DNA of 64,000 nucleotides from Laetmonice hystrix (lineage: Eukaryota), in assembly GCA_965235115.1 (NCBI GenBank), contig OZ249436.1:682001-746000 (forward strand). Reading direction: 5' to 3'. The notes beneath the pieces were generated by a model. It made no database searches, had not been told where the DNA came from, and saw only the letters and a list, made by a program, of their open reading frames with translations. Shown here piece after piece: positions 1,884 to 55,617 of the stretch; within the stretch, counting starts at the first letter, position 1; every line of letters starts with the position of its first letter. A program made the position numbers and the translations under genes.

Positions 1884-2035
1884 GTTGAAGCTCCTCTTGC
1901 CTTTTCTTCTGCTGTTCCTCCCTTTGTTTCTTGATGATGGCTAAACGAGCTAAATCAGCACGAGCCTCATCCGTCTTTCCTGCCAGGTGCATCTTGCGAT
2001 AGTGTGCCGCTGCCTGCTGTTTCTGAAGTTCTTCC
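1884..2035 (-). CDS. PDAP1: PDAP1 coding exon 5
   Basis: [40 protein letters not shown], the hallmark PP28 motif; atcag acceptor, C|GTGAGT donor. Confidence 0.93.
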
Positions 2036-2479
2036 CTGATACAACAACAAAATTAATACTTGAAAACTCAGTAAACAACCGTAATCTGAGGGATAGTTTC
2101 TGAAGTTCTTCCCTGATACAACAACAAAATTAATACTTGAAAACTCAGTAAACAACCCTAATCTGAGGGATAGTTTCTGAAGTTCTTCCCTGATACAACA
2201 GCAAAATTAATACTTGAAAACTCAGTAAACAACCCTAATCTGAGGGATAGTTTCTGAAGTTCTTCCCTGATACAACAGCAAAATTAATACTTGAAAACTC
2301 AGTAAACAACCCTAATCTGAGGGATAGTTTCTGAAGTTCTTCCCTGATACAACAACAAAATTAATACTTGAAAACTCAGTAAACAACACTAATCTGAGGG
2401 ATAGTTTCTGAAGTTCTTCCCTGATGCAACAACAAAATTAATACTTGAAAACTCAGTAAACAACCCTAATCTGAGGGAT
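2021..2479. repeat. Minisatellite, 77-bp unit x~6, containing the PDAP1 exon 5 acceptor
   Basis: Unit contains ttctgaagttcttccctgatac (minus strand: tatcag|GGAAGAACTTCAGAA). Confidence 0.95.
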
Positions 2480-2760
2480 TCCAGAATTCTCGTAATAAGC
2501 TAACGTGATTTGGAGTTTTAAGTCTCTCTACTACATCTCCATCGAGAGAAACCATGATTTGTTAACAAAAGCTAAAGAAAAGATGAGGACGATGATACAC
2601 ATTTAATATGCAAAGTATTTGGCACAGAATTCCTGAATATCACGCCAGTTTAATACAACAGGAAATATTAGTACCGTTCTCTGCCTCCAGATGTAGTGAC
2701 TATCCCACGCCAGTTTTAATAATTATGCAGAATTTTAAAAACAAGAAATTGTCCACAAAC

Positions 2761-2885
2761 CTTTCTCTCCGACTAAGCTGAGGCTTATCAACTTCAGTGG
2801 GGTCTAACTGTGATACCTTCTTTGACTTTGACACCACATGGTTTGGGTTGGCAGTTTCTATCAAATGAGAAACACCCTTTTTCTT
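2761..2885 (-). CDS. PDAP1: PDAP1 coding exon 4
   Basis: KKKGVSHLIETANPNHV...KKVSQLD...QLSRRER matches the PP28 domain (KGVEGLIDIENPNRV...KKVTQLD...ELSRRER); cag acceptor, AG|GTTTGT donor. Confidence 0.92.
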
Positions 2886-3421
2886 CTGAAATGCAGAAAG
2901 TGAACAATAAGTCAGTAGCATATAGTGGGGGTATGCACAATCTGTAATACCATTTAAATCCTTATTATACTACATCATTCAATACGCCTCCATGAGGCAT
3001 AAATAGATTGATACATTTATTATACAAAGTTTCACATTGTACGAGTCACACTTTTTCCATTAAAGTGAATGTGAACTAGAAAGCTGCAAAACAGTCCGAA
3101 ATCAGCATCCCTAAAAAATGTTTTGTCTGATGCCTGGGGGTTGTAACTATAGAATGCTATCACTAATTACTTTATTTTGAGTATATTTCTTTGCAAATTT
3201 TGCAAGCTAAATTGGACATCCCATTGAATTAAAAAAGACAAATGTCTCTTCCCCAGTTTGTAAGATTGTTTTCATTAGTTATGGGAAAACAACGATCTTT
3301 GTACCTAAGGTATAAGATGAATGTCCTATCTGATATGTTGGCCAACCACATGTGACTCAGGATAAGAGATAGGAATATTTTACCACTTTCGTAAAATTAT
3401 TGTGTTGAACTTTCCAGTTAC

Positions 3422-3562
3422 CTCTTCTCGTTCTTCTTCTTCTTCACTACTACTTTCTTCTGACGACCCCTCAGCTGGATCCTTTGGTGGTTTCTTACTC
3501 TTGGCAGCAGCTTTTTCCTCATCTGAGTCTTCTTCAGAATCACTGGCTAAACCCCTCTCTCT
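3422..3562 (-). CDS. PDAP1: PDAP1 coding exon 3 (acidic, Ser-rich)
   Basis: tttcag acceptor, GAG|GTAACT donor, 141 nt phase 0-0; RERGLASDSEEDSDEEK...SSSEEEEEREE. Confidence 0.85.
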
Positions 3563-3827
3563 CTGAAATAAATGATCCGTATAAATCATATGTACCCGGT
3601 ATATAATAATTGTTAACACACTTGTACCACACTTGAAATCCAGGGTGCAACTGAGAAATCCATTCATATATTTGGAGTCACCAGTTTATTTTTTGAACAC
3701 CATTTCTATTTCCAATGTTAATTCTGTACCCGTACAAGTTTATAATTTTGAAAACCAAACTACTTGTACCAATTCTCCTAGAGCTGGTTAAATAGTTCTT
3801 TGGATTTTCACTGGTGTGAATGTTGTG

Positions 3828-4538
3828 AAACATTGTGCCTCTCAGTGTTACACAATTGTACTCACTGGTGTGAATGTTGTGAGACATTGTGCCTCTCAGT
3901 GTCCACTGGTGTGAATGTTGTGAGACATTGTGCCTCTCAGTGTTACACCATTGTACTCACCCTCCACTGGTGTGAACGCTGTGAGACATTGTGCCTCTCA
4001 GTGTTACCCAATTGTACTCACCGTCCACTGGTGTGAATGTTGCGAGACATTGTGCCTCTCAGTGTTACCCAATTGTACTCACCGTCCACTGGTGTGAATG
4101 TTGTGAGACATTGTACCTCTCAGTGTCCACTGGTGTGAATGTTGTGAGACATTGTACCTCTCAGTGTCCACTGGTGTGAATGTTGTGAGACATTGTACCT
4201 CTCAGTGTCCACTGGTGTGAATGTTGTGAGACATTGTACCTCTCAGTGTCCACTGGTGTGAATGTTGCGAGACATTGTGCCTCTCAGTGTTACCCAATTG
4301 TACTCACCCTCCACTGGTGTGAATGTTGTGAGACATTGTACCTCTCAGTGTCCACGGGTATGAATGCTGCGAGACATTGTGCCTCTCAGTGTTACCCAAT
4401 TGTACTCACCCTCAACTGGTGTGAATGTTGTGAGACATTGTGCCTCTCAGTGTTACCCAATTGTACTCACCCTCCACTGGTGTGAATGTTGTGAGACATT
4501 GAGCCTCTCAGTGTTACACAATTGTACTCACCCTCCAC
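3828..4538. repeat. Compound minisatellite (~61-bp and ~39-bp units) containing the PDAP1 exon 2 donor
   Basis: Repeated attgtactcaccctccactggtgtgaatgttgtgagacattg. Confidence 0.93.
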
Positions 4539-4647
4539 TCCCTTTCCTTTTCTTTCTTTATTTCCGCCTTGTGCAGTTCTTCCTCATTTGTGAAATGCCT
4601 GCGTTTCCCTTTGTGGCTTTTCTTTCCACCACGGCCATGGCTACCTC
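4532..4647 (-). CDS. PDAP1: PDAP1 coding exon 2
   Basis: tag acceptor, AGG|GTGAGT donor; encodes GSHGRGGKKSHKGKRRHFTNEEELHKAEIKKEKEREWR, resembling the PDAP1 N-terminus (GGRKGGHKGRARQYT). Confidence 0.88.
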
Positions 4648-4897
4648 CTAATAAATTCAAGAACATTAAGTCAGTCAAAGTTTTCACTTATACTGACATG
4701 ACCGACAGTGGTGGCAGTGAGATGCGTGCAATCAGGCACCATTGCTTGCCCAAATTACGATCAAGGAGCACGAATAGGCCTACCCCAGCGCACAAGCAAA
4801 AGAAAGTGCAGGGGTCGAAAAATCCAGTACATCTGCGGTGTCATAGGTCATGCCATGCCCACGGCTATGACTGATTTAAAAGCAAGATGTTGATTAA

Positions 4898-5139
4898 AGG
4901 TACGCTCTATTGAATTCGGTTTCCGCGTGGGACTGCATGCGATGGCCCAGTGTCGCGTGCCCGTTCTGGGAATTGAACGCCCCGTTCCCACGACCTGTCG
5001 CAGCCCACGGTACAGCGGTGAGTCCCCCAGTCGCTGTGCGCTTGCTCGGGGAACGGAGCGTTCAATTTATAGAACGGGTACGTGACGCTGGGCCATCGCT
5101 GCAGTCCGACGCGGTAATCGAATTCAATAGAGTGTCACT
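4898..5139. mobile_element. MITE with long imperfect TIRs, TTAA TSD, AG...CT ends (Kolobok-like)
   Basis: ttaa|aggtacgctctattgaattcgg ... cgaattcaatagagtgtcact|ttaa; arms pair over roughly 90 bp. Confidence 0.75.
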
Positions 5140-5451
5140 TTAAGATAATAACTGGACCAACATGGGTCTAGAACAACTAGTAAAATAGGATGTGATCTGA
5201 CTCAGGCCAGGGTTTCTCAGCAGCTGAGAGACGCTTATGATGTCACAGAGTCACTTGGCCCACACACAGTAAGCCGTACGTAGAGGACAGTGTGACGTCA
5301 CTCGTCAGTGAGTGGTGAGCATGATGACACCACACTTCACTGACACATGGGTCAGAGATTAGGCCTAGTGTTAGACTACTTTGAAGAGATAAAACTTTAT
5401 AGTCCATTAAATTACTTTTTTCTACTTTAATGTAATACGTTTAACGCTTAC

Positions 5452-5461
5452 CCTTCGGCAT
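5452..5461 (-). CDS. PDAP1: PDAP1 (28 kDa heat- and acid-stable phosphoprotein) coding exon 1, ATG CCG AAG G
   Basis: ATG followed by G|GTAAGC donor; gives the MPKG start typical of PDAP1 and joins in frame to the 4532-4647 exon. Confidence 0.8.
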
Positions 5462-5677: not shown

Positions 5678-5771
5678 ATGCCTAAAGTGAAGAGAAGTAA
5701 GAAACCACCACCAGATGGATGGGAACTCATTGAACCAACACTTGATGAACTCGATCAAAAGATGAGAGAGG
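5678..5771 (+). CDS. BUD31: BUD31 (G10 spliceosomal protein) coding exon 1
   Basis: [31 protein letters not shown], near-identical to the BUD31 N-terminus; G|GTAAGA donor. Confidence 0.96.
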
Positions 5772-6176
5772 GTAAGATTAAGTTTCGAAAGCCCGACCAA
5801 ACTGATGCCAGTGATGCCGATGGTCGATAATTGGGGACACGAAGTCCACATGACATGATACAGTTAGGCCTAGCCGTAGTCAGCAGGAGTGGTACAAGGA
5901 ACTAGACTCTAGTGAGGTTTTTGCAAAGCGAGTTTTTCCCCCAGAATCGTCGCCTGAGGTTTTTGCAAAGCGAGTTTTTCCCCCAGTATCGTCGCCAAAC
6001 GACCAAGGTCTGGAACCATAGTCATAGATAGGCCTAGAATGTCTGCAGCCAGGGATTTTTAGCTTTAGACTTAGTTGAGAGACTGAGCCCTAGGCTAGGC
6101 TAGGCCTAACGTTAGGGGCTGTCTATAAAATTACGTAAGTCGTAACGCTTGGCCCTGGCTGGGGGGTGGGTGGTAT

Positions 6177-6547
6177 CCAGTCACTGTGAGCGTCTGCCAC
6201 TGTGAGCGGCAGTCACTGTGAGCGGCAGTTAGGCCTACTGTGAGCGGCTTGAGCGGACATGTGATGAGCCACCCCGTAACACAGCGTGTCCCTTGCCGGG
6301 CGCCTCGAGCAGAGCGGCGAGGGGCGGACATGACCGGGCGTAGCCTATACATCCCGGATCATGTAGCCCTAGTACTATATAATATACACGATCCTTGCGG
6401 ACATGGCGACTGGCGGACATGTTGTGTTACCAATTAGATTATATGTGAAACATCTAGCATGCTATCCATGCGCTCATAATCATATGTGACTGTGACCGCC
6501 GCTCACAACAACTGCCGCTCACAGTTGCTGCCGCTCACAGTAACTGG
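6177..6547. mobile_element. Foldback/MITE-like element with inverted arms built of short ctgtgagcggcag repeats
   Basis: ccagtcactgtgagcg... versus ...cgctcacagtaactgg; TSD not resolved. Confidence 0.5.
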
Positions 6548-8989
6548 TATTCGGGTGGGTACTCCAACAAGTCAGAGTCCTAGTCATTCCGTCCATACGG
6601 ACTCTGACCATCGAGTACAAATGCGCCAGCGACTGCTATGCTGCCGGGGTTCTATCTCGGTCCTATCGCGCATCATCGCCTCAAAGTCATGTTTTAGACC
6701 ACTTTTGGCACTGAAACTTGCTGAGAGTACACAAAACAGGTTACTTCAACAGATGCGTAAATGTATTTTGTTGGATGTTATCTTAGTAGGTGAAATTCTC
6801 AGTTTGTTTGGTCAAATACAGTGCAGCGCGGGTGACGAGCGGTGACCCAGTTTATCGGGTGTGCGTATTTTCCACTTCTACAGTTGATCCGGAACGGACC
6901 GCATAAGTAGGTCGCGCTACCTGTTCAAGCAGACGCTGACGGCACAGAGTGAAGCTATCCGTTTCGGGTACCAGTAGCGATCTAACTTTTATCAGTTCCC
7001 GGTCACTCGGTGCACCGCAGATGGCTGACGGAGCTACGGACCCGACTTGCTCGTAAACAACCGGACCGTGTGGACGTTATATTTGTCCAATAATTATAAT
7101 CAAGGTCGAAATAGAAACTTCAATACTGTGGCTCTCTACGAAAATTGATTTCATGCTTCTTGGAAGGAGTTTAGTACCAAAACGAAGGCCGCAAAGTTGC
7201 GATAACGGACCTCTTCGCAGAGCGTCCAAGAGTCGCTAGGCCAGCGTCACTTGACAACTAAACGGTGTTCTGGAAGACACCGTTTAGAAACTGAACTAGG
7301 GGGTGGGGGGATCTCTATCAAAATCGGCCGCTCGTAATAACCTACCGCCAACGGGCGTAGCACGGCCAGATAGGAAAGTGAAAGAAAACAAAAATGAATT
7401 GATAACTCTGTGTTATATAACATTGTGCATCTCGGCCATGCCCACTGTACGCACAGGCTTTTTACAGATGAGCCAGCACCACAAAAAAAAAAATTTACGG
7501 GACCGGAAAAGTAGCTGATAAAGTTGGCATAGGCCTCAAATTCCCGTAAATGAAATGGAAAAGGAATTTCATAGTCTTAAATGATTCTGCATCAACTTCC
7601 ACAACATTTTTTTGATTGCTTACCTAGCGCTCAGTGAAGGATTCAAAACGTAAACAAAAGGCTAGCCATGCTCGTCACTACTACTACGTAGTGACTGGAG
7701 AAAAGTACGGGAAAAGTGTGAAAAGTACTTCCAAAAACTGTGAAAACTCGCCAGAACACGTCCTCGTAGGCCCCTAACCGGTTGGTAACGGTCGGTAAAG
7801 TAAACAGGGATAAAAAAAAAAGAATAATTTCCCTAAGTGGCTAGCACTTAGAGTGAAGTCGTTGAGTCTGAGAGGCAGAATGCCATTCCAACTGGGACGC
7901 AGCCCATTTATAGGAAAAGGTCATGACCTTGACCGCCATTTGTCCGAGATGCGTCACATGACCCGCTTGCTCTGGTTGGTGAGCGACTGCTCACGACATA
8001 GTTGTCAGGGACCTGCCGCAAGCCCTGCCCCTAGATACGCTCTAGCTTGCCGAAGCCAGAAAACCTACGTTACGCATTATAAATAGTCTTTTTTAACATG
8101 TAGACGTGTAAAAGATCCAAAAACGGCCCCGTTAACGTTTTTCCTTTCCTAAAATGATTGCAGGGATATATCTAGGTCGATTTGTAACGGCGGCCCACCG
8201 TGCCCCCAACAGGCTCCGCCACTCCATGCCCTTTTTTGCCCCAAAAGCCGCCACTGGTGCCTTTCTTACAACCAAAGATCCGCCAGTGGTGCCCTTATAA
8301 TACTGCCACACATGCCTAGTGACTGCTGCGAATTGACTGCAGTTTTAAGTGTATCAGCGTTCTTGCCAGCCTTTTTCAGCGTAGCGGGCCGCTACGCTGT
8401 GTATTTAGGCCACTACACTGTCTTTGAGGCCGCTACGTTGTCTCTTGACCAGCGTAGCGGCAAAAACCTGTCTAAATTCAACAGAACCCACAGGAATACC
8501 GGTAAAATGTTGCTTCGTTACTGTCCAGTTTAACAAACCTTTCTCATCTGACTATCTAGACCGCAAGATAAGGCTCTAAAATAGCCTAAATTACCTGAGC
8601 TTGGGGTTTGCCCCTCCTGTACCCCTAACCAGGGCTCTGCCCTTAGTTTGACCACTACGCTGTCGACAATTTCTGGCGAGAACCCTGTGTATACTACTGG
8701 TGAAGATATTTTAATGAGGCATAACCACAGATCATAGGGGAAGGAAGGTTTGAATTATTTGTTAAATAATTTTGACATCAGATGCACAGAAGACTGTGTC
8801 CTGTGCCTTAGAAGACTTTGTGTGTTCAAATGCCCATTCGACACATAGTGCCCTTTTTCGGATATGGGGGCCATGACCTTTTGAAATCCTAGCTATATCC
8901 CTGAATTGATGTTTCGACAATGGCATTTTTAGCTGAGACTGAACCACGCAAGGGGGAAGCTCATGAACTTATCAATTGAACTGTTACAG

Positions 8990-9112
8990 CTGAGACTGAA
9001 CCACACGAAGGGAAGCGAAAGGTTGAGGCGCTGTGGCCCATCTTCAAAATACATCACCAGAAGTCGCGGTACCTGTATGACCTTTTCTACAGACGTAAAG
9101 CCATCAGCCGAG
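8990..9112 (+). CDS. BUD31: BUD31 coding exon 2
   Basis: ttacag acceptor; [48 protein letters not shown] donor. Confidence 0.96.
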
Positions 9113-9430
9113 GTGAGTACTAATACACGGGGAGTGGGCAGCAGGGGAGTCCTGGCCAGTACGAGACAGACAACTGAGACACAGTTTTACAACGAGACAT
9201 ACTGTCATGGCAGCAACAAGTATTATGGCACTATTTTCAGATAAAGTAATTGGGGGTTTTATTTTCCAGCTGATCAGAGGATAGCCACCATTTTTATGCT
9301 GCCAGTTAGCAGATTTTTTCTTTTTGGTGCAGGATAACTGGAAATGATGATAAATGGGTTTTTAAATCCGTGTAATATTCTATGCCATGTACTGACGAAG
9401 TAGGTATCATCTTGTTTTTTTTCCTTCCAG

Positions 9431-9597
9431 AACTGTATGAGTATTGTATGAGGGAAGGCATAGCAGACAGGAATTTGATTGCGAAGTGGAAGAAGCAGGG
9501 TTACGAGAACTTATGCTGTCTGCGCTGCATCCAGGCCCGAGACACAAACTTTGGTACAAACTGTATATGCCGAGTTCCTAAAGGAAAGCTTGAAGAG
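9431..9597 (+). CDS. BUD31: BUD31 coding exon 3
   Basis: ttccag acceptor; [64 protein letters not shown] donor. Confidence 0.97.
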
Positions 9598-10171
9598 GTG
9601 AGTCTGTATAACCTTTCCATATTGAGGCGAGCCTGTGTAACCTTTCCATATTGAGGTGAGTCTGTATAACCTTTCCATATTGAGGCGAGCCTGTGTAACC
9701 TTTCCATATTGAGGTGAGCCTGTATAACCTTTCCATATTGAGGTGAGTCTGTATAACCTTTCCATATTGAGGTGAGTCTGTATAACCTTTCCATATTGAG
9801 GTGAGTCTGTATAACCTTTCCATATTGAGGTGAGTCTGTATAACCTTTCCATATTGAGGTGAGTCTGTATAACCTTTCCATATTGAGGTGAGCCTGTATA
9901 ACCTTTCCATATTGAGGTGAGCCTGTATAACCTTTCCATATTGAGGTGAGCCTGTATAACCTTTCCATATTGAGGTGAGCCTGTATAACCTTTCCATATT
10001 GAGGTGAGCCTGTATAACCTTTCCATATTGAGGTGAGCCTGTATAACCTTTCCATATTGAGGTGAGCCTGTATAACCTTTCCATATTGAGGTGAGCCTGT
10101 ATAACCTTTCCATATTGAGGCGAGCCTGTATAACCTTTCCATATTGAGGTGAGCCTGTATAACCTTTCCAT
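9595..10171. repeat. Minisatellite, 29-bp unit x~20, starting at the BUD31 exon 3 donor and filling most of intron 3
   Basis: gaggtgag(t/c)ctgtataacctttccatatt repeated. Confidence 0.96.
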
Positions 10172-10210
10172 AAATCCTTAGGTATAATATGGTAACTTCT
10201 TATCTTTCAG

Positions 10211-10261
10211 GGTAAAATTGTTGAGTGTGTACACTGTGGGTGTCGAGGTTGTTCAGGATGA
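10211..10261 (+). CDS. BUD31: BUD31 terminal coding exon 4
   Basis: tttcag acceptor; GKIVECVHCGCRGCSG*; total 435 nt = 144 aa, the canonical BUD31 length. Confidence 0.96.
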   Translation, partial: GKIVECVHCGCRGCSG

Positions 10262-11577: not shown

Positions 11578-11581
11578 TTAA

Positions 11582-17925: not shown

Positions 17926-17942
17926 CTGTAGAAAAAAAAAAA

Positions 17943-18519: not shown

Positions 18520-18675
18520 AGAATAGGTTCTTGGAACAAAAATGATCCTAAATTTTCTAGATATCATATAATTTTATCAAAATAGGATCACACATACCAT
18601 TTCTTCTTGCCCTCATTAGAAATCAAACGTGACTTTAAGGAAGATACTCATTCAAGTCTGACTACGAGTTCTTAC

Positions 18676-39752: not shown

Positions 39753-40070
39753 AAATCTTGATTAATTTTACGAGGAAAAGGTATGGCCTTTACAATTACA
39801 GGGAAGATTATATAAATGGTAATTTTAGACCTGGCAGCACTACCATCTTGGCATCCTCGGCAACAAACGTTTTTCATTGATCCTAAGTTTTATTTAATCA
39901 TTTTAATGTTCCTGGTGCTGGTTCCTGTACAGCCTAGGTCTGGCATGGATGGTGAATGAATCATAAAGAGGAAGGTAAAATATTAAATAAGGTTTTAAAA
40001 AATCATTAACTATACATAACGAGTATATGGGTTTCCCGAGATTATACTTGGCTCAGGGTTATGTTTATGT

Positions 40071-41742: not shown

Positions 41743-43350
41743 GAATCTGACCTGACCCGCCCAGTTTTAGTGATCTCATACAATTGTGCTGGGTTGGGGA
41801 AAGGTGTGCTGGCGTGGTCGGAGAACTAGACTGTGACTGGCCAATATGGTGCCTTGTGGCCACCTCGCCAGGTTTGACAGTGGGATAGGGCACAGGGCAG
41901 CGTGCCCATCCGTGATACAGCCTGACAGATATAGGTTGATGTGTGCGAGCCGTGCCAATTAGAACATGTCAGGATGAAATTGTTTTAATATAGCGGGGGT
42001 GGTGAACAACCGATGGTCGGGAGTCTGTGCTAGTAGACAGGTCAAGGCATGCCCTTGTTATTTCTTTATACTCTGAATAATACTGGGATTGCCAAAGTCT
42101 GAATTTCAGATTTTTCCCCATTAAAGAAGGATCTCATGTGATTGGTATTCTAAGATGTGATACTGAGGGAGGCCAGAAGGAAGTCAGTGTATGATGGTGT
42201 CCTTTGAACCAGCTGCCAGCATAAATAGCTACATGCCAACCAGATGCCAGTCTCTGGCGACGTTCTGTTACCGTGACCGACCCTTGGGATGTACTGCTCA
42301 ACTAGGCTTGAGAACACTGAACTCATGAACCTGCCAGATTCTGTCAAGTTCTACAGAGGTACCGGTGCCAGCGTTTCACAGACTTTGCCAGGGACAACTT
42401 AGCATCCTATAATAGATCAGTGTACTACCGCAATCTTCCCTGTAAAAGCCGCACTTTTTCCTCCGAAAGGATTATCAGGCTTCGGGGATGTGGCTGTGTG
42501 TTCATGAGCACTTGGGTCTAGAGACCAATACCTGCCATCGTTTTCAATGCTCAGGTAAAGCACGTTATGTACGTGGCGGTGCCTTATACACAGAATATTA
42601 TGTACGTGGGGGTGCCTTATACACGGAATATTATGTATGTGGGGGTGCCTTATACACAGAATATTATGTACGTGGGGGTGCCTCATAGTACACGGAATAT
42701 TATGTACGTGGCGGTGCCTTATACACGGAATATTATGTACGTGGCGGTGCCTTATACACAGAATATTATGTACGTGGGGGTGCCTTATACACGGAATATT
42801 ATGTACGTGGGGGTGCCTTATACATGGAATTATGTACGTGGCGGTGCCTTATACACGGAATATTATGTACGTGAGGGTGCCTTATACACGGAATATTATG
42901 TACGTGGGGGTGCCTTATACACGGAATATTATGTACGTGGGGGTGCCTTATACACGGAATATTATGTACGTGGGGGTGCCTTATACACGGAATATTATGT
43001 ACGTGGCAGTGCCTTATAGTACACGGAATATTATGTACGTGAGGGTGCCTTATACACGGAATATTATGTACGTGGCGGTGCCTTATACACAGAATATTAT
43101 GTACGTGGGGGTGCCTTATACACGGAATATTATGTACGTGGGGGTGCCTTATACACGGAATATTATGTACGTGGGGGTGCCTTATACACGGAATATTATG
43201 TACGTGAGGGTGCCTTATACACAGAATATTATGTACGTGGCGGTGCCTTATACACGGAATATTATGTACGTGGTGGTGCCTTATACACGGAATATTATGT
43301 ATGTGGCAGTGCCTTATACACTGAATATTTTTACATGGCAGTGCCTTATA

Positions 43351-43524
43351 CAGTCAGACCTCGTTTATCCGAACAGCTTGGTGCCCATTAAAATGGTTCG
43401 GATTGTGAAATATACGTATTACTAAATCATTTTAAATAGAAAATGGTAGAAGAGGTTACCAGAAAGGGTGTTCGGATTGTGAGGTATACGGATTACAGAA
43501 GCACGGATTAACGAGGTCTGACTG
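43351..43524. mobile_element. Tc1/mariner-type MITE (174 bp), TA TSD, copy 1
   Basis: ta|cagtcagacctcgtt ... aacgaggtctgactg|ta. Confidence 0.88.
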
Positions 43525-44155
43525 TACACGGAATATTATGTACGTGGCGGTGCCTTATACACAGAATATTATGTACGTGGGGGTGCCTTATACACGGAAT
43601 ATTATGTACGTGGCGGTGCCTTATACACGGAATATTATGTACGTGGCGGTGCCTTATACACGGAATATTATGTACGTGGCGGTGCCTTATAGTACACGGA
43701 ATATTATGTATGTGGCGGTGCCTTATACACGGAATATTATGTACGTGGCGGTGCCTTATACACGGAATATTATGTACGTGGCGGTGCCTTATACACGGAA
43801 TATTATGTACGTGGCGGTGCCTTATACACGGAATATTATGTACGTGGCGGTGCCTTATACACGGAATATTATGTACGTGGGGGTGCCTTATACACGGAAT
43901 ATTATGTACGTGGCGGTGCCTTATACACGGAATATTATGTACGTGGGGGTGCCTTATACACGGAATATTATGTACGTGGGGGTGCCTTATACACGGAATA
44001 TTATGTACGTGAGGGTGCCTTATACACAGAATATTATGTACGTGGCGGTGCCTTATACACGGAATATTATGTACGTGGTGGTGCCTTATACACGGAATAT
44101 TATGTATGTGGCAGTGCCTTATACACTGAATATTTTTACATGGCGGTGCCTTATA

Positions 44156-44329
44156 CAGTCAGACCTCGTTTATCCGAACAGCTTGGTGCCCATTAAAATG
44201 GTTCGGATTGTGAAATATACGTATTACTGAATCATTTTAAATAGAAAATGGTAGAAGAGGTTACCAGAAAGGGTGTTCGGATTGTGAGGTATACGGATTA
44301 CAGAAGCACGGATTAACGAGGTCTGACTG
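44156..44329. mobile_element. Tc1/mariner-type MITE (174 bp), TA TSD, copy 2
   Basis: Near-identical to copy 1, 805 bp downstream, same flanks. Confidence 0.88.
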
Positions 44330-45486
44330 TACACGGAATATTATGTACGTGGCGGTGCCTTATACACAGAATATTATGTACGTCGGGGTGCCTTATACAC
44401 AGAATATTATGTACGTGGCGGTGCCTTATACACGGAATATTATGTACGTGGCGGTGCCTTATACACGGAATATTATGTACGTGGGGGTGCCTTATACACG
44501 GAATATTATGTACGTGGGGGTGCCTTATACACAGAATATTATGTACGTGGCGGTGCCTTATACACGGAATATTATGTACGTGGGGGTGCCTTATACACGG
44601 AATATTATGTACGTGGCGGTGCCTTATAGTACACGGAATATTATGTACGTGGCGGTGCCTTATAGTACACGGAATATTATGTACGTGGCGGTGCCTTATA
44701 CACGGAATATTATGTACGTGGCGGTGCCTTATACACGGAATATTATGTACGTGGCGGTGCCTTATACACAGAATATTATGTACATGGCGGTGCCTTATAC
44801 ACAGAATATTATGTACGTGGGGGTGCCTTATACACAGAATATTATGTACGTGGCAGTGCCTTATACACGGAATATTATGTACGTGGCGGTGCCTTATACA
44901 CGGAATATTATGTACGTGGGGGTGCCTCATAGTACACGGAATATTATGTATGTGGCGGTGCCTTATACACGGAATATTATGTACGTGGCGGTGCCTTATA
45001 CACGGAATATTATGTACGTGGCGGTGCCTTATACACGGAATATTATGTACGTGGCGGTGCCTTATACACGGAATATTATGTACGTGGCGGTGCCTTATAC
45101 ACGGAATATTATGTACGTGGCGGTGCCTTATACACGGAATATTATGTACGTGGCGGTGCCTTATACACGGAATATTATGTACGTGGCGGTGCCTTATACA
45201 TGGAATATTATGTACGTGGCGGTGCCTTATAGTTATACACGGAATATTATCGTATTCTCATATCCAGGGCATTTATCCACTGCTGCCTGTCTACAGTTTA
45301 AAAGCCTGGAAGTCTAGATAGTTCTAGTAAAAGAACTATAATGTTCATCACAAGCCCAAAATTTGTGCCAGTTTTCTATCTTTTTTCTCAAAAGAAAACA
45401 AAGTTGGCAATTTGTATGTCAGTTGATACAAATCTGAGAGAAATTTGTTTTTTTGATGTTGAACCAATGGTTCGGCTGATTATCGT

Positions 45487-45731
45487 GATTTGAGGTTCAC
45501 AATGTGCACTAGGCCCGGTCAGTTATGACCTAGGTCAGACAGTGAGAGATTTGAGGTTCACAGTGTGCACTAGGCCCGGTCAGTTATGACCTAGGTCAGA
45601 CAGTGAGAGATTTGAGGTTCACAGTGTGCACTAGGCCCGGTCAGTTATGACCTAGGTCAGACAGTGAGAGATTTGAGGTTCACAGTGTGCACTAGGCCCG
45701 GTCAGTTATGACCTAGGTCAGACAGTGAGAG
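45487..45731. repeat. 61-bp unit x4
   Basis: gatttgaggttcacagtgtgcactaggcccggtcagttatgacctaggtcagacagtgaga repeated. Confidence 0.92.
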
Positions 45732-45862
45732 AAAGGACTTGTTAACGTCACTCTGCCTGAGGCTATACTATACAGGTCTGTGTCCAGAACAGATCATATA
45801 GACCCACAGTCGTTATGGTTACTACAGACTCAGGGGCAACAAATTGTAGACTGGTTAAACAT

Positions 45863-48800
45863 GTGGATGAACTGAGTTCATGGTGTCAGAGATTGAGTTT
45901 CTCTGAGTGGATGAACTGAGTTCATGCTGTCAGAGATTGAGTTTCTCTGAGTGGATGAACTGAGTTCATGGTGTCAGAGATTGAGTTTCTCTGAGTGGAT
46001 GAATGTAGTTCATGGTGTCAGAGATTGAGTTTCTCTGAGTGGATGAATGTAGTTCATGGTGTCAGAGATTGAGTTTCTCTGAGTGGATGAATGTAGTTCA
46101 TGGTGTCAGAGATTGAGTTTCTCTGAGTGGATGAACTGAGTTCATGGTGTCAGAGATTGAGTTTCTCTGAGTGGATGAATGTAGTTCATGGTGTCAGAGA
46201 TTGAGTTTCTCTGAGTGGATGAACTGAGTTCATGGTGTCAGAGATTGAGTTTCTCTGAGTGGATGAACTGAGTTCATGGTGTCAGAGATTGAGTTTCTCT
46301 GAGTGGATGAACTGAGTTCATGGTGTCAGAGATTGAGTTTCTCTGAGTGGATGAACTGAGTTCATGGTGTCAGAGATTGAGTTTCTCTGAGTGGATGAAC
46401 TGAGTCCATGGTGTCAGAGATTGAGTTTCTCTGAGTGGATGAACTGAGTTCATGGTGTCAGAGATTGAGTTTCTCTGAGGGGATGAACTGAGTTCATGGT
46501 GTCAGAGATTGAGTTTCTCTGAGTGGATAAACTGAGTTCATGGTGTCAGAGATTGAGTTTCTCTGAGTGGATGAAGTGAGTTCATGGTGTCAGAGATTGA
46601 GTTTGTCTGAGTGGATAAACTGAGTTCATGGTGTCAGAGAATGAGTTTCTCTGAGTGGATGAACTGAGTTCATGGTGTCAGAGATTCAGTTTCTCTGAGT
46701 GGATGAACTGAGTTCATGGTGTCAGAGATTGAGTTTCTCTGAGTCAGTGGATGAACTGAGTTCATGGTGTCAGAGATTGAGTTTCTCTGAGTGGATGAAC
46801 TGAGTTCCTGGTGTCAGAGATTGAGTTTCTCTGAGTGGATGAATGTAGTTCATGGTGTCAGAGATTGAGTTTCTCTGAGTGGATGAATGTAGTTCATGGT
46901 GTCAGAGATTGAGTTTCTCTGAGTGGATGAACTGAGTTCATGGTGTCAGAGATTGAGTTTCTCTGAGTGGATGAATGTAGTTCATGGTGTCAGAGATTGA
47001 GTTTCTCTGAGTGGATGAATGTAGTTCATGGTGTCAGAGATTGAGTTTCTCTGAGTGGATGAAGTGAGTTCATGGTGTCAGAGATTGAGTTTCTCTGAGT
47101 GGATGAACTGAGTTCATGGTGTCAGAGATTGAGTTTCTCTGAGTGGATGAATGTAGTTCATGGTGTCAGAGATTGAGTTTCTCTGAGTGGATGAATGTAG
47201 TTCATGGTGTCAGAGATTGAGTTTCTCTGAGTGGATGAATGTAGTTCATGGTGTCAGAGATTGAGTTTCTCTGAGTGGATGAACTGAGTTCATGGTGTCA
47301 GAGATTGAGTTTCTCTGAGTGGATGAAGTGAGTTCATGGTGTCAGAGATTGAGTTTCTCTGAGTGGATGAAGTGAGTTCATGGTGTCAGAGATTGAGTTT
47401 CTCTGAGTGGATGAACTGAGTTCATGGTTTCAGGGATTGAGTTTCTCTGAGTGGATGAACTGAGTTCATGGTGTCAGAGATTGAGTTTCTCTGAGTGGAT
47501 GAAGTGAGTTCATGCTGTCAGAGATTGAGTTTCTCTGAGTGGATGAACTGAGTTCATGGTGTCAGAGATTGAGTTTCTCTGAGTGGATGAATGTAGTTCA
47601 TGGTGTCAGGGATTGAGTTTCTCTGAGTGGATAAACTGAGTTCATGGTGTCAGAGATTGAGTTTCTCTGAGTGGATGAACTGAGTTCATGGTGTCAGAGA
47701 ATGAGTTTCTCTGAGTGGATGAACTGAGTTCATGGTGTCAGAGATTGAGTTTCTCTGAGTGGATGAAGTGAGTTCATGGTGTCAGAGATTGAGTTTCTCT
47801 GAGTGGATGAAGTGAGTTCATGGTGTCAGAGATTGAGTTTCTCTGAGTGGATGAAGTGAGTTCATGGTGTCAGAGATTGAGTTTCTCTGAGTGGATGAAG
47901 TGAGTTCATGGTGTCAGAGATTGAGTTTCTCTGAGTGGATGAACTGAGTTCATGGTTTCAGGGATTGAGTTTCTCTGAGTGGATGAACTGAGTTCATGGT
48001 GTCAGAGATTGAGTTTCTCTGAGTGGATGAAGTGAGTTCATGGTGTCAGAGATTGAGTTTCTCTGAGTGGATGAACTGAGTTCATGGTGTCAGAGATTGA
48101 GTTTCTCTGAGTGGATGAATGTAGTTCATGGTGTCAGAGATTGAGTTTCTCTGAGTGGATGAAGTGAGTTCATGGTGTCAGAGATTGAGTTTCTCTGAGT
48201 GGATGAACTGAGTTCATGGTTTCAGGGATTGAGTTTCTCTGAGTGGATGAACTGAGTTCATGGTGTCAGAGATTGAGTTTCTCTGAGTGGATGAAGTGAG
48301 TTCATGGTGTCAGAGATTGAGTTTCTCTGAGTGGATGAACTGAGTTCATGGTGTCAGAGATTGAGTTTCTCTGAGTGGATGAATGTAGTTCATGGTGTCA
48401 GAGATTGAGTTTCTCTGAGTGGATGAAGTGAGTTCATGGTGTCAGAGATTGAGTTTCTCTGAGTGGATGAAGTGAGTTCATGGTGTCAGAGATTGAGTTT
48501 CTCTGAGTGGATGAAGTGAGTTCATGGTGTCAGAGATTGAGTTTCTCTGAGTGGATGAATGTAGTTCATGGTGTCAGAGAATGAGTTTCTCTGAGTGGAT
48601 GAACTGAGTTCATGGTGTCAGAGATTGAGTTTCTCTGAGTGGATGAACTGAGTTCATGGTGTCAGAGATTGAGTTTCTCTGAGTGGATGAACTGAGTTCA
48701 TGGTGTCAGAGAATGAGTTTCTCTGAGTGGATGAAGTGAGTTCATGGTGTCAGAGATTGAGTTTCTCTGAGTGGATGAATGTAGTTCATGGTGTCAGAGA

Positions 48801-49191
48801 TTGAGTTTCTCTGAGTGGATGAATGTAGTTCATGGTGTCAGAGATTGAGTTTCTCTGAGTGGATGAATGTAGTTCATGGTGTCAGAGATTGAGTTTCTCT
48901 GAGTGGATGAACTGAGTTCATGGTGTCAGAGATTGAGTTTCTCTGAGTGGATGAATGTAGTTCATGGTGTCAGAGATTGAGTTTCTCTGAGTGGATGAAC
49001 TGAGTTCATGGTGTCAGAGATTGAGTTTCTCTGAGTGGATGAAGTGAGTTCATGGTGTCAGAGATTGAGTTTCTCTGAGTGGATGAACTGAGTTCATGGT
49101 GTCAGAGATTGAGTTTCTCTGAGTGGATGAAGTGAGTTCATGGTGTCAGAGATTGAGTTTCTCTGAGTGGATGAACTGAGTTCATGGTGTC
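45863..49191. repeat. Minisatellite, 44-bp unit x~75
   Basis: gtggatgaactgagttcatggtgtcagagattgagtttctctga repeated. Confidence 0.97.
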
Positions 49192-50142
49192 GCAGACGGC
49201 AGAGATTTGAGTAGACCGACAGGGATCTGCCATGTACAGTGTGTCCCCACAAACGATGTACACCCTGCGCCCTCAGATCATAAAGGGAACAAATGCTGTT
49301 ATTGACCATTTTTTCCTCAGATCCTGCCAGGCCCCCATAGATTTACAAGTCGTCACCGGGGCTGTGTCTGAATGCTTTGAATAGCTTCACGCAATGTGTA
49401 GGCCTGGTTGTTTCGTCCATCATAGGCTGGTGAACTATGCCTGCCTTCCGACAATTCATCCACCCTAAACCGACCCCCCCGACCCAGTGTAGGCAGACTG
49501 TATGCAAACATCAGGGATAGCAACATTGTCATCATATAATTGTGGTATTCTTGGCCCAGAGTCGAGGTGTGAGTCTATCATGACTATCACAAAGCACGTT
49601 TTGTTGAACACAGAGGCAGTCGTCAATGTACACGGTGTCCGTGGGACCAGGTGGATTGGAAGCACAGGTTATTTTACAGTTACCTAGTCAGACCAGCAGA
49701 CACCTTTGTTTAAAAGGGCGGTGGAGCGTACTGTGGTTTATTAGACATCCACTTTCTTTTAATTATTATTTCTGAGCAGACAGTAGCCAACACGGTTGGT
49801 TGACCTGAGTTGATATGGTATTGGACCTAAGTGGTGTTTTGAGGCTTTCCTTTTAATAAATAAACCACTTGACAGTGGGCAGGACGGGAGGTGTTATAAA
49901 TCAGTGTGACAGCTCGGCGTGACTATTGACAGACCTGTGTTATTTATTGACACAATTATTAGGTTATTATGGGATCAAACTGGTGAGGTTCTACAGGCAC
50001 TGACATGCTCCAGTTGATAGAAAACATGCTAGGTTTTAGTGTGTGACTGTCATTGTTATAAAGTTAGGAATTCCTAAATTATTATACCAGGATCTCCTTA
50101 AAAATATTCTCCAAAATGCCTACCCCTAATTATTAGAGATAC

Positions 50143-52898
50143 CTGTTGGGCAGTGATTGGAGGTGTGTGGTGGGCAGTGATTGGAGGTGTGTGGTGGGCA
50201 GTGATTGGAGGTGTGTGGTGTGTGGTGGGCAGTGATTGGAGACCTGTGTGTGGTGGGCAGTGATTGGAGGTGTGTGGTGGGCAGTGATTGGAGGTGTGTG
50301 GTGGGCAGTGATTGGAGGTGTGTGGTGTGTGGTGGGCAGTGATTGGAGACCTGTGTGTGGTGGGCAGTGATTGGAGGTGTGTGGTGGGCAGTGATTGGAG
50401 GTGTGTGGTGGGCAGTGATTGGAGGTGTGTGGTGGGCAGTGATTGGAGGTGTGTGGTGGGCAGTGATTGGAGGTGTGTGGTGGGCAGTGATTGGAGGTGT
50501 GTGGTGGGCAGTGATTGGAGGTGTGTGGTGGGCAGTGATTGGAGGTGTGTGGTGGGCAGTGATTGGAGGTGTGTGGTGGGCAGTGATTGGAGGTGTGTGG
50601 TGGGCAGTGATTGGAGGTGTGTGGTGGGCAGTGATTGGAGGTGTGTGGTGGGCAGTGATTGGAGGTGTGTGGTGGGCAGTGATTGGAGGTGTGTGGTGGG
50701 CAGTGATTGGAGGTGTGTGGTGGGCAGTGATTGGAGGTGTGTGGTGGGCAGTGATTGGAGGTGTGTGGTGGGCAGTGATTGGAGGTGTGTGGTGGGCAGT
50801 GATTGGAGGTGTGTGGTGGGCAGTGATTGGAGGTGTGTGGTGGGCAGTGATTGGAGGTGTGTGGTGGGCAGTGATTGGAGGTGTGTGGTGGGCAGTGATT
50901 GGAGGTGTGTGGTGGGCAGTGATTGGAGGTGTGTGGTGGGCAGTGATTGGAGGTGTGTGGTGGGCAGTGATTGGAGGTGTGTGGTGGGCAGTGATTGGAG
51001 GTGTGTGGTGGGCAGTGATTGGAGGTGTGTGGTGGGCAGTGATTGGAGGTGTGTGGTGGGCATTGATTGGAGGTGTGTGGTGGGCAGTGATTGGAGGTGT
51101 GTGGTGGGCAGTGATTGGAGGTGTGTGGTGGGCAGTGATTGGAGGTGTGTGGTGGGCAGTGATTGGAGGTGTGTGGTGGGCAGTGATTGGAGGTGTGTGG
51201 TGGGCAGTGATTGGAGGTGTGTGGTGGGCAGTGATTGGAGGTGTGTGGTGGGCAGTGATTGGAGGTGTGTGGTGGGCAGTGATTGGAGGTGTGTGGTGGG
51301 CAGTGATTGGAGGTGTGTGGTGGGCAGTGATTGGAGGTGTGTGGTGGGCAGTGATTGGAGGTGTGTGGTGGGCAGTGATTGGAGGTGTGTGGTGGGCAGT
51401 GATTGGAGGTGTGTGGTGGGCAGTGATTGGAGGTGTGTGGTGGGCAGTGATTGGAGGTGTGTGGTGGGCAGTGATTGGAGGTGTGTGGTGGGCAGTGATT
51501 GGAGGTGTGTGGTGGGCAGTGATTGGAGGTGTGTGGTGGGCAGTGATTGGAGGTGTGTGGTGGGCAGTGATTGGAGGTGTGTGGTGGGCAGTGATTGGAG
51601 GTGTGTGGTGGGCAGTGATTGGAGGTGTGTGGTGGGCAGTGATTGGAGGTGTGTGGTGGGCAGTGATTGGAGGTGTGTGGTGGGCAGTGATTGGAGGTGT
51701 GTGGTGGGCAGTGATTGGAGGTGTGTGGTGGGCAGTGATTGGAGGTGTGTGGTGGGCAGTGATTGGAGGTGTGTGGTGGGCAGTGATTGGAGGTGTGTGG
51801 TGGGCAGTGATTGGAGGTGTGTGGTGGGCAGTGATTGGAGGTGTGTGGTGGGCAGTGATTGGAGGTGTGTGGTGGGCAGTGATTGGAGGTGTGTGGTGGG
51901 CAGTGATTGGAGGTGTCTGGTGGGCAGTGATTGGAGGTGTGTGGTGGGCAGTGATTGGAGGTGTGTGGTGGGCAGTGATTGGAGGTGTGTGGTGGGCAGT
52001 GATTGGAGGTGTGTGGTGGGCAGTGATTGGAGGTGTGTGGTGGGCAGTGATTGGAGGTGTGTGGTGGGCAGTGATTGGAGGTGTGTGGTGGGCAGTGATT
52101 GGAGGTGTGTGGTGGGCAGTGATTGGAGGTGTGTGGTGGGCAGTGATTGGAGGTGTGTGGTGGGCAGTGATTGGAGGTGTGTGGTGGGCAGTGATTGGAG
52201 GTGTGTGGTGGGCAGTGATTGGAGGTGTGGGGTGGGCAGTGATTGGAGGTGTGTGGTGGGCAGTGATTGGAGGTGTCTGTTGGGCAGTGATTGGAGGTGT
52301 GTGGTGGGCAGTGATTGGAGGTGTGTGGTGGGCAGTGATTGGAGGTGTGTGGTGGGCAGTGATTGGAGGTGTGTGGTGGGCAGTGATTGGAGGTGTGTGG
52401 TGGGCAGTGATTGGAGGTGTGTGGTGGGCAGTGATTGGAGGTGTGTGGTGGGCAGTGATTGGAGGTGTGTGGTGGGCAGTGATTGGAGGTGTGTGGTGGG
52501 CAGTGATTGGAGGTGTCTGGTGGGCAGTGATTGGAGGTGTGTGGTGGGCAGTGATTGGAGGTGTGTGGTGGGCAGTGATTGGAGGTGTGTGGTGGGCAGT
52601 GATTGGAGGTGTGTGGTGGGCAGTGATTGGAGGTGTGTGGTGGGCAGTGATTGGAGGTGTGTGGTGGGCAGTGATTGGAGGTGTGTGGTGGGCAGTGATT
52701 GGAGGTGTGTGGTGGGCAGTGATTGGAGGTGTGTGGTGGGCAGTGATTGGAGGTGTGTGGTGGGCAGTGATTGGAGGTGTGTGGTGGGCAGTGATTGGAG
52801 GTGTGGGGTGGGCAGTGATTGGAGGTGTGTGGTGGGCAGTGATTGGAGGTGTCTGTTGGGCAGTGATTGGAGGTGTGTGGTGGGCAGTGATTGGCAGT
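50143..52898. repeat. G-rich minisatellite, 24-bp unit x~115
   Basis: ggtgggcagtgattggaggtgtgt repeated. Confidence 0.98.
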
Positions 52899-54162
52899 GA
52901 GTGACCGCTTGGTATACTGACAGCACACACCTGCCCCCCCCCCCCCCCCCCCCCCCCACCTGCCCACTGAGTACAATCTGCCGCTGAGCAGCTCACCTGT
53001 AAAGTTTGGGTTACCGATTGGGTCACAGGCTGCCAGACCTTACAGCAATGATGTAATCCCTGGCTCAGCTGGACAAAGTTGGACTCCTGCACATCCCAGT
53101 TCTATATCTATATCTATGTCTTTTTTCTCTTCAACTGATCCTTTGGAAGTCGTGGTTGTGGGCGTGGACATGCTACACATGGTATAGACTTGGGTAGATT
53201 TAGAAACACTGAAAGTCGTTGCCAGGATTATGGCCAATAGATCACGTCTTGTGGTGTCGAGATTGTATGAACGGCCACTCTGACATGTCACAGCCTAGTG
53301 GGTAAACTATAGACCCCGTTAAAATATGTGCTTCTTTATTCCTTTAATCTTGGAACCATGACGTCTTGAAGAATGTGAAACTGCATCTGTTGAGGCCGAG
53401 GTTGAAAGAACCTTTTGAAGTTGTCAGTGATATGGGAAGTCGGTGCCCAAACGCTGTCTCATCAAGTACCTGAGTGTCACCTATAAATGACATTTAGATT
53501 TTGTACCGCAATCACTGCCACAACAATTTGCCAAATGTTACAGAAAATACATTAAACTAGGTTACAGAATGAGTAGGTCAAAATTTAAAAAAACGAAAAG
53601 AATGATTCATCAGTAAGTGTAAAGGATGGCTAATGAAATATTGACAGTGAGACGGATGACAGACGCAAGGTTGTTGGATTGAAGTCGCTTTAGTTGGCCA
53701 TAGCAGGTCATTATGGTGTCAATAATTGCAAACAAGCGTGAATCATTAATGAACTGAACAAAAATCATCCAGCAAAATGGTTTTGATCTTTTGGCGTGTT
53801 GGTATGTTTATTTAATGGTCGTAGTGTGAACCAGATATTTTTTTTGTTGATCTGATCATTGAAATGCTTTGCCCATAAGTTTTTACGTAAGATATTTGTT
53901 GAGAAACAGTTCAAAAGTTCATGGAAAACTTAACAAAACAACCAGAAAGTTCGCAGTTTCGTATGATCGTAAGGCACTTTGAAGTTTTCAATGTAGGCTG
54001 TGAATTACTGAGGGCTTGAGTTGAGACTCTCTAGGACTGCTGCTTTTACTTCCTACAGATTTTGGTGAGAGGGTCACTATCCGAGTGCTATGTCACATAG
54101 GAGGTCATCAGAAAGCAGGATATACTTTAAGGGTGGCTGCTTTCCAACTCCCAATATTTTGA

Positions 54163-55199
54163 ACTCGTAACTCTTGTCTCGATATTTGTGATGATTCCGT
54201 TGATAAAGAAGTCGTAACTCTTGTCTCAGTATTTGTGATGATTCCGTTGATAAAGAAGTCGTAACTCTTGTCTCAGTATTTGTGATGATTCCGTTGATAA
54301 AGAAGTCGTAACTCTTGTCTCAGTATTTGTGATGATTCCGTTGATAAAGAACTCGTAACTCTTGTCTTGGTATTTGTGATGATTCCGTTGATAAAGAAGT
54401 CGTAACTCTTGTCTCAGTATTTGTGATGATTCCGTTGATAAAGAAGTCGTAACTCTTGTCTCCGTATTTGTGATGATTCCGTTGATAAAGAAGTCGTAAC
54501 TCTTGTCTCCGTATTTGTGATGATTCCGTTGATAAAGAAGTCGTAGCTCTTGTCTCAGTATTTGTGATGATTCCGTTGATAAAGAAGTCGTAACTCTTGT
54601 CTCCGTATTTGTGATGATTCCGTTGATAAAGAAGTCGTAACTCTTGTCTCAGTATTTGTGATGATTCCGTTGATAAAGAAGTCGTAACTCTTGTCTCGGT
54701 ATTTGTGATGATTCCGTTGATAAAGAAGTCGTAGCTCTTGTCTCAGTATTTGTGATGATTCCGTTGATAAAGAAGTCGTAACTCTTGTCTCAGTATTTGT
54801 GATGATTCCGTTGATAAAGAAGTCGTAACTCTTGCCTCAGTATTTGTGATGATTCCGTTGATAAAGAAGTCGTAACTCTTGTCTCAGTATTTGTGATGAT
54901 TCCGTTGATAAAGAAGTCGTAACTCTTGTCTCAGTATTTGTGATGATTCCGTTGATAAAGAAGTCGTAACTCTTGTCTCAGTATTTGTGATGATTCCGTT
55001 GATAAAGAAGTCGTAACTCTTGTCTCAGTATTTGTGATGATTCCGTTGATAAAGAAGTCGTAACTCTTGTCTCAGTATTTGTGATGATTCCGTTGATAAA
55101 GAAGTCGTAACTCTTGTCTCAGTATTTGTGATGATTCCGTTGATAAAGAAGTCGTAACTCTTGTCTCAGTATTTGTGATGATTCCGTTGATAAAGAAGT
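54163..55199. repeat. Minisatellite, 47-bp unit x~22, ending ~55 bp before the 55256 acceptor
   Basis: gtcgtaactcttgtctcagtatttgtgatgattccgttgataaagaa repeated. Confidence 0.96.
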
Positions 55200-55255
55200 T
55201 GCAGAATGTTGACTGTGGTATGATTTCTGTGTATTGATTGATGTTTTACTTACAG

Positions 55256-55417
55256 GTCTGGGGGTGATGCTGGTCGTGGTAGTAGGGGTAGGGTGGAAGT
55301 GTACACCCCCTGGACACGAACCCTGTCATCTCTTGTTTAATCTGGGCGACCACTCTACACGGGACATCTGCCGGTCAGTCCACCGCCGTCACCGGGACCG
55401 GTCACACTGGTATGGAG
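55256..55417 (+). CDS. Second coding exon of the same membrane protein (completes TM2)
   Basis: ttacag acceptor, phase 1 matches; FLTLSLMFI-G-LGVMLVVVVGVGWKCTPPGHEPCHLLFNLG...WYG; G|GTACGT donor; downstream exon not identified. Confidence 0.8.
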
Positions 55418-55617
55418 GTACGTGCGTTTTCATTTCTCTGCTCCGTCACTGGAACCTGTCACACTCGTTCGTTTTTCATTTCTCTCCTCCGTCACCGGGA
55501 CCGGTCACACTCGTCCGTTTTCATTTCTCTCCTCCGTCACACCGGGACCGGTCACAGTCGTCCGTTTTCATTTCTCTGCTCCGTCACCGGGACCAGTCAC
55601 ACTAGTCCGTTTTCATT
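55382..55617. repeat. Degenerate ~44-bp repeat x~5 derived from the 3' end of the 55256-55417 exon
   Basis: ccgtcaccgggaccggtcacac + tcgtccgttttcatttctct. Confidence 0.85.

Follow-up and report, generated by a model that had tools for sequence, protein, structure and literature searches.

Minisatellite arrays spanning exon-intron junctions in a repeat-rich, near-telomeric stretch of the Laetmonice hystrix genome

Splice junctions at the ends of minisatellite arrays

We analyzed a 64,000-nucleotide stretch of the Laetmonice hystrix genome (contig OZ249436.1, positions 682,001 to 746,000; G000:C1:682001-746000 in our coordinates), here called the window, in which tandem arrays overlap splice junctions. 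Four genes, PDAP1, BUD31, CRLF3, and an unnamed membrane-protein gene, were rebuilt from coordinates, and each of the 32 coding junctions in the window was tested by alignment for being the end unit of an array. Six junctions (19%), in three genes, lie in the terminal unit of an array that carries copies of the splice site. These arrays are mirage minisatellites: the units run head to tail, span the exon-intron boundary, duplicate its splice site, and are private to their locus. They likely arose because tandem repeats are born at a high rate in this subtelomeric zone, within short introns, and are tolerated through splice-site choice. The spanning arrays have units of 29–87 bp in 4–32 copies, with 3–36 bp of exon in each unit, as follows.

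2019..2479, (-) strand: 77 bp x6.0 array; PDAP1 exon 5 acceptor 2035 plus 17 bp of exon; 5 AG decoys
3863..4539, (-) strand: 61/41-bp composite array; PDAP1 exon 2 donor 4532 plus 8 bp of exon; 7 GT decoys
9595..10172, (+) strand: 29 bp x19.9 array; BUD31 exon 3 donor 9597; 19 decoys (16 GT, 3 GC)
19685..24017, (-) strand: 87-bp array (9.5 + 22.4 copies); CRLF3 exon 5 acceptor 19699 plus 15 bp of exon; 31 AG decoys
25100..25669, (-) strand: 51 bp x11.2 array; CRLF3 exon 3 donor 25633 plus 36 bp of exon; 10 GT decoys, most of them weakened
25989..26271, (-) strand: irregular array with 34–86 bp steps; CRLF3 exon 2 donor 26258 plus 14 bp of exon; 4 GT decoys

The exon part of the BUD31 exon 3 unit is 3 bp by exact match and probably 5, and this array occupies 575 of the 613 intron bases. 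The CRLF3 exon 2 array (25989–26271) contains telomere-like TTAGGG motifs in both orientations.

An earlier sequence-only reading had counted at least eight junctions as terminal array copies, about a quarter of some 31. We confirmed six (PDAP1 exons 5 and 2, BUD31 exon 3, and CRLF3 exons 5, 3, and 2); the loosest count gives 8/32, of which 6/32 are true splice-site arrays. The other two are BUD31 exon 2, with one diverged copy, and the membrane-gene array, which lacks a donor. Two more arrays had been said to abut acceptors, which holds for the one that ends near CRLF3 exon 7 and at best weakly for the one in the membrane gene.

8931..8960, (+) strand: extra BUD31 exon 2 start, a single diverged copy after an AG, lying 57 bp before the real acceptor
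55421..55618, (+) strand: 45 bp x4.3 array; 23 bp of the membrane-gene exon end plus intron, without donor decoys
17942..18520, (-) strand: 59 bp x9.8 array; abuts the CRLF3 exon 7 acceptor at a distance of 16 bp, with no splice site inside
54161..55199, (+) strand: 47 bp x22 intronic array; ends 56 bp before the membrane-gene acceptor 55256 (weak abutment)

The extra copy at BUD31 exon 2 has ~27 bp of exon in common with the real site and an intron match limited to the AG, and it is not an array. Its acceptor scores 2.2 bits, against 7.5 for the real one, and would read in frame to a stop. At 8950–8952, a second haplotype (run X1) carries one substitution and a 1-bp deletion, and the copy is thus drifting. 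The membrane-gene unit skips the 12 nt that bear the donor, such that exon and intron DNA are joined and the boundary itself is absent. A decoy may have been lost there (55385–55618) before amplification, in this one case.

Across the window, we counted 77 decoy splice sites, with an intact GT or AG in 74. Splicing to any of the 74 intact decoys would lead to truncation or a frameshift of the protein, and every in-frame decoy meets a stop; the view that decoys exist and have to be avoided therefore stands. The further claim, that real sites are chosen among up to ~30 near-identical decoys, applies to the CRLF3 exon 5 array, where 30/31 decoy acceptors score equal to the real one. It does not extend to the donors at CRLF3 exon 3 and BUD31 exon 3, where 9/10 and 13/19 decoys score more than 1 bit below the real site with a scoring matrix that was trained with real sites included and slightly favours them.

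Arrays and splice-site use in the reads

Four read runs from one sample were compared over positions 4460–9670. Three were DNA-like and one, X4, was classed as spliced from its joints alone, the kind of run not being on record. In the three DNA-like runs, depth was 135–565 in two array-edge bins versus ~30–60 in single-copy bins, and contigs ended inside the arrays. The reads thus hold the arrays in multiple copies which, as far as this could be tested, are not an assembly artefact. An artefact is most improbable. The runs come from one sample, probably the assembled one, and no contig spans an array. Against an artefact, read depth at array edges climbs 4- to 10-fold in each of the three DNA-like runs, contigs break inside arrays, copies differ in structured ways (93–99% matches), a dispersed element interrupts one array, and array density follows chromosome position.

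In X4, PDAP1 exon 1 was joined to exon 2, and sequence ending at 4532 continued into exon 3. BUD31 exons 2 and 3 were covered from the real acceptor at 8990, and 9597 was joined to exon 4. The exon-adjacent site was thus used at 4532, 8990, and 9597, which are three of the eight named junctions and the three that lie within the contig comparison, in which rare decoy use is invisible. No decoy joints were found among the contig rows listed for 4460–9670, where contigs drop rare forms.

We also considered whether decoys are functional, either tuning expression by unproductive splicing or adding protein modules, and regard this as very unlikely. A precedent exists in human ABCA7, where splicing can use a decoy donor one unit downstream and is affected by the length of the variable number tandem repeat (VNTR) (PMC5954066). 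Three window units (51, 57, and 87) are also multiples of 3. However, 29, 61, 77, and 86 are not, and unit lengths show no frame pattern overall. The stops met by all in-frame decoys speak against a function, as do the decay of many donor decoys, the membrane-gene unit without a donor, and the missing decoy joints among the listed contig rows, within the limits of contigs just given. Nor did any hint of conservation emerge, though no search aimed at it was made.

A repeat-rich chromosome end with short ancestral introns

The assembly comprises 627 Mb in 35 contigs. The start of contig C1 carries telomeric repeats, which places the window 0.68–0.75 Mb from a chromosome tip. Contig C5, used below, has no telomeric repeat at its start, and distance to the contig end is only a proxy there. 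Tandem repeats make up 31,091 of the 64,000 window bases (0.486) and fall into 40 merged arrays with units of at least 10 bp. Elsewhere, repeat cover declines with distance from the contig end, from 0.38 at <1 Mb (4 loci) to 0.17 at 1–2 Mb (6 loci) and 0.04–0.10 at >2 Mb (91 loci). Array births per collapsed kb likewise number 1.4–1.5 near contig ends versus 0.47 in the interior. If each array is counted as a single unit, 10 of the window's 15 complete introns are no longer than 390 bp.

The most extreme intron is that of the membrane gene (37958–55255), where seven unrelated arrays account for 12.9 kb (75%) of 17.3 kb, and which collapses to 4.7 kb. In the array-rich stretches at 10–14 kb, 22–24 kb, and 40–54 kb, GC skew tracks the host-gene strand, with the sense strand G-rich, and peaks at up to +0.8 in this same intron. 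Some arrays lie just outside genes: one (10285–10443) begins ~25 bp past the BUD31 stop and one (17297–17604) ~35 bp past the CRLF3 stop; the PDAP1 stop is ~315 bp from an array.

The units have private origins. The 40 window units are mutually unrelated, except for the split halves of the 87-bp array and one marginal 27-bp match between two 16-bp units. All three units searched genome-wide (very common words skipped) match their own locus only, bar one 47-bp partial match. The cross-comparison and these searches bear out the earlier view that the units have no common sequence and do not stem from one transposon. A single transposon family seeding the arrays was rejected as the units are private to their locus and contain exon sequence of their own gene. 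One dispersed repeat does interrupt an array.

20505..22085, strand not assigned: dispersed-repeat insertion of 1.58 kb; splits the 87-bp CRLF3 array; terminates in (ACGG)n with a short GC hairpin

This element may be akin to the non-autonomous Helentron-like elements of marine invertebrates.

Chance overlap versus junction-biased birth

We next compared the number of spanned junctions with chance, using an event-based null in which each array was collapsed to one unit and placed randomly in the intron plus junction zone, and junction coverage was counted. As the window had been selected for its pattern, we built an independent junction set of 116 stretches (~298 kb of 627 Mb). Exons came from Pfam genome searches (kinases, chaperonins, DEAD, Ras) with the flanks unseen, plus an SNRNP200 stretch, likewise chosen unseen and annotated by tblastn. 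The set holds 297 junctions, 140 placed by phase-matched pairs and 157 by Pfam hit end plus splice score. We left out 15 of 30 kinase loci (full-domain or near-full matches), introns <60 bp, and junctions with a pair margin <4 or a single-site score <6; the L112 acceptor was shifted 16 bp by hand. The AMP-binding and myosin families gave no matches <1 Mb from contig ends and were not used.

Outside the window, 4/297 junctions are spanned versus 5.7–6.4 expected. The sequence-only reading had proposed either a genome-wide process that prefers junction DNA or random birth followed by filtering, and had named overlap no higher than minisatellite density predicts as the refuting outcome. The genome-wide process is not supported by these counts, as overlap outside the window does not exceed the expectation, though inside it is nominally above; random birth then filtering fits the data. 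A genome-wide excess is rejected at 2.5-fold (P ~0.001) and 2-fold (P 0.011). The four spanned junctions outside the window are the following.

L097: donor, 70-bp unit
L101: acceptor, 86-bp unit
SNRNP200: donor, 60-bp unit
L043: acceptor, 93-bp unit

By position, 3/60 junctions <1 Mb from a contig end are spanned versus 2.7–3.6 expected, 0/18 at 1–2 Mb, and 1/219 in the interior versus 2.8–3.1 expected. The SNRNP200 stretch (L113, G000:C5:486100-494250) has 1/28 junctions spanned. Three of its introns have grown to 0.8–2.0 kb by arrays that start 16–37 bp past an uncovered donor; the other ten are 94–245 bp.

A 16-mer profile gave a junction peak in no set: the window has 0.19 at the junction versus 0.21 at intron bases 1–40, and the interior 0.005 versus 0.016–0.027. 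The corresponding null gave P 0.30–0.31 (near), 0.08 (all), and 0.01 (far) for the window; it is lenient, since the first units of the spanning arrays themselves sit in the near-exon background, and we relied on the event-based null.

Several results weigh against reading the arrays as chance by-products tolerated through splice-site choice. The window has 6 spanned junctions versus 1.59 expected over whole introns (P 0.004), 2.22 with the null held within 400 bp (P 0.014), and 2.95 within 200 bp (P 0.051); adding the membrane-gene array makes 7, with P 0.001–0.03. Pooled with the other contig ends, the count is 9 versus 4.3–6.5 (P 0.02–0.18). The <1 Mb sample is small, its ratio of 0.8–1.1 having a 95% interval that reaches 2.5–3.3, and the 157 of 297 outside junctions placed by Pfam hit end and splice score alone may contain errors. 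Finally, the cases of innermost-site use comprise two donors and the single-copy BUD31 exon 2 acceptor, and the multi-copy acceptor arrays are not among them. The window excess is 2- to 4-fold but is not repeated in the independent samples.

This excess could reflect junction-biased birth confined to subtelomeres or to this chromosome end, with polymerase pausing, R-loops, or break repair seeding duplications about twice as often at junctions, an effect that would show only where repeats expand. We regard such a process as unlikely, and doubt to the same extent a subtelomeric bias of ~2-fold as such. Besides the window excess and the pooled count, several arrays begin within 40 bp of a junction, and the array-rich stretches are G-rich on the host-gene sense strand. 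Yet the 60 independent subtelomeric junctions show no excess, and an excess limited to subtelomeres fits poorly at 2.5-fold (P 0.02–0.10) but is not rejected at 2-fold (P 0.08–0.22). Nor does the 16-mer profile rise at the junction itself (offset 0) compared with intron bases 1–40. Moreover, the exon share of the unit is ≤22% in 7 of 10 spanning arrays (the six in the window plus L043, L097, L101, and L104), a non-uniform distribution (Kolmogorov-Smirnov P 0.012), as if intron-born units spilled over the edge. The skew may reflect selection against exon-rich units or a lower birth rate in exons. In its full form, junction bias would have subtelomeric junctions give birth to arrays at ~2x the rate of neighbouring intron DNA via a transcription- or splicing-linked lesion, with a strict innermost-site rule that allows an exon to follow 30 acceptors scoring equal to its own; we give this combination only a small chance. 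If it were true, the loci would lend themselves to tests of acceptor choice and of intron gain under way.

A less remote possibility, though still one we hold to be improbable, is random birth with better survival beside exons: deep-intron DNA would be turned over by deletions and transposons, exon flanks would be old and protected, and a smooth gradient would result. It is compatible with the explanation we favor and would account for the residual window excess. Seeding rates in the window fall from 0.21 (bases 1–40) to 0.14 (41–400) and 0.06 (>400), BUD31 intron 1 is mostly high-copy DNA and holds only small arrays, and the window excess shrinks as the null narrows to near-exon DNA. However, no clear gradient is seen at the other subtelomeric loci (0.10, 0.06, 0.11, 0.02, 0.10, 0.06), and transposon content is mapped only in part.

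A probable route from random birth to tolerated arrays

By the explanation we favor, random repeat birth tolerated through splice-site choice, the process would start from position. The window lies in a near-telomere zone where locus-specific arrays take up 38–49% of the DNA versus 4–10% in chromosome interiors. A random 30–90-bp unit would often cover an exon edge because the collapsed introns are short, and 1.6–3 of the 32 junctions would be spanned by chance. Slippage or strand-invasion repair presumably makes the first duplicate of the unit, and unequal exchange would then amplify and homogenise the copies. A junction-spanning unit would yield (intron+exon)n, of which all but the exon-joined copy are intronic if the innermost site is used.

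That site is the most upstream donor or the acceptor closest to the next donor. Its use was seen at three junctions and would apply to the rest. Under exon definition, the acceptor nearest the next donor yields a normal exon, which probably holds for the acceptors here. Rare decoy use would lead to a premature stop or frameshift and mostly be cleared by nonsense-mediated decay. The arrays would then be tolerated passengers, and the 6/32 of the window the upper tail.

The sequence-only reading had also stressed that the arrays extend only into the intron. This is true of the spanning arrays and needs no explanation of its own, as it follows from the (intron+exon)n geometry together with innermost-site use. 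The donor case mirrors the acceptor case, and no directional process is needed.

Gene models and neighbouring features

The four gene models are as follows.

1427..5461, (-) strand: PDAP1; coding exons 5452-5461, 4532-4647, 3422-3562, 2761-2885, 1884-2035, ~1427-1497
5678..10260, (+) strand: BUD31; coding exons 5678-5771, 8990-9112, 9431-9597, 10211-10260
17639..27562, (-) strand: CRLF3; coding exons 27455-27562, 26258-26465, 25633-25720, 24192-24369, 19438-19699, 18676-18957, ~17639-17925
35935..55417, (+) strand: unnamed membrane-protein gene; exons 35935-37957 and 55256-55417

PDAP1 has a 204-aa open frame with a Pfam PP28 match, and its exon 1-2 joint is present in run X4. BUD31 has a 144-aa open frame, a Pfam BUD31 match, and a spliced record in X4. 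The CRLF3 model is an open frame with a weak Pfam fn3 match and a 45% match to Lineus CRLF3 on exon 5; its start codon was read from the sequence. Homologues of the membrane gene occur in Owenia (the best named match), Lineus, Tubulanus, and Dimorphilus. Its donor at 55417 is placed by the Owenia homologue. The gene has no Pfam match, and we found no further downstream exon within the window. Exon candidates at ~39.9, 42.5, 49.3, and 54.1 kb were rejected, as the Owenia homologue joins 37957 directly to 55256. For CCT4, Lingula is the best named match. The named matches point to a lophotrochozoan, probably an annelid, and no amphioxus protein is among them. Intron gain by tandem genomic duplication was considered; none of the gene models needs an additional intron or exon to close.

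PDAP1 and BUD31 stand head to head, with start codons ~217 bp apart (5461-5678). The human genes are likewise head-to-head neighbours, which would imply an old pair with a shared promoter.

Comparison with known systems

The pattern is already in print as the "mirage" minisatellites of amphioxus, described in Adh3, the globins BflGb6 and BflGb9, troponin C, and PGBD5 (PMC3087553, PMC3902484). Those arrays have units of 10–160 bp, keep normal splicing, are length-unstable, and have been proposed as a route to intron gain (PMC3087553, PMC3902484). The window arrays resemble them in having locus-specific tandem units over the exon-intron boundary, at donors or acceptors, with intact GT/AG copies. 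Unlike the amphioxus cases, the host here is a lophotrochozoan rather than a cephalochordate, copies number up to 31 versus 3–6 in the globins, and the arrays are tied to a subtelomeric repeat zone and compared with a null. The original description of amphioxus mirages is reportedly that of Canestro et al. in 2002. We found no report of mirages for this taxon, or for annelids or other lophotrochozoans, in the literature searched, most subscription journals being outside its coverage.

Single human loci offer close parallels. In F7 intron 7, the first unit of a 37-bp VNTR spans the donor, the identical pseudo-sites are silent, and the most upstream donor wins (PMC1557585). The same choice of the most upstream donor is seen at PDAP1 exon 2 and BUD31 exon 3. 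Unlike F7, which is one locus with a donor only and has a mutational test, the window has donors and acceptors, several per gene. In ABCA7 intron 18, a 25-bp VNTR begins at the donor, and splicing from the donor of the next unit shifts the frame and leads to a premature stop (PMC5954066). The window likewise has arrays that start at a donor and next-unit donors that would shift the frame; ABCA7 is the only one of the two for which decoy use and a length effect have been measured.

On a broader scale, human segmental duplications contain variable internal tandem repeats at exon-intron boundaries (PMC2812944), and human subtelomeres are enriched for VNTRs, 21-fold for those with GC >60% (PMC7608644). 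Here too, boundary tandem repeats occur across the genome and long-unit repeats pile up near chromosome ends. Unlike in the human duplications, no new intron or exon is seen, and the arrays are mostly of moderate GC, in contrast to the human enrichment at GC >60%.

Our results add a lophotrochozoan to amphioxus and the single human loci as hosts of mirages and offer a plain account of their clustering, namely repeat-rich chromosome ends and short ancestral introns. The null test suggests that mirages need no special mechanism. Such arrays can mislead annotation because decoy copies yield exon-like protein matches. The CRLF3 exon 5 array, where 30 of 31 decoys are as strong by score as the real acceptor, is a good case for the choice of the last among many equal acceptors.

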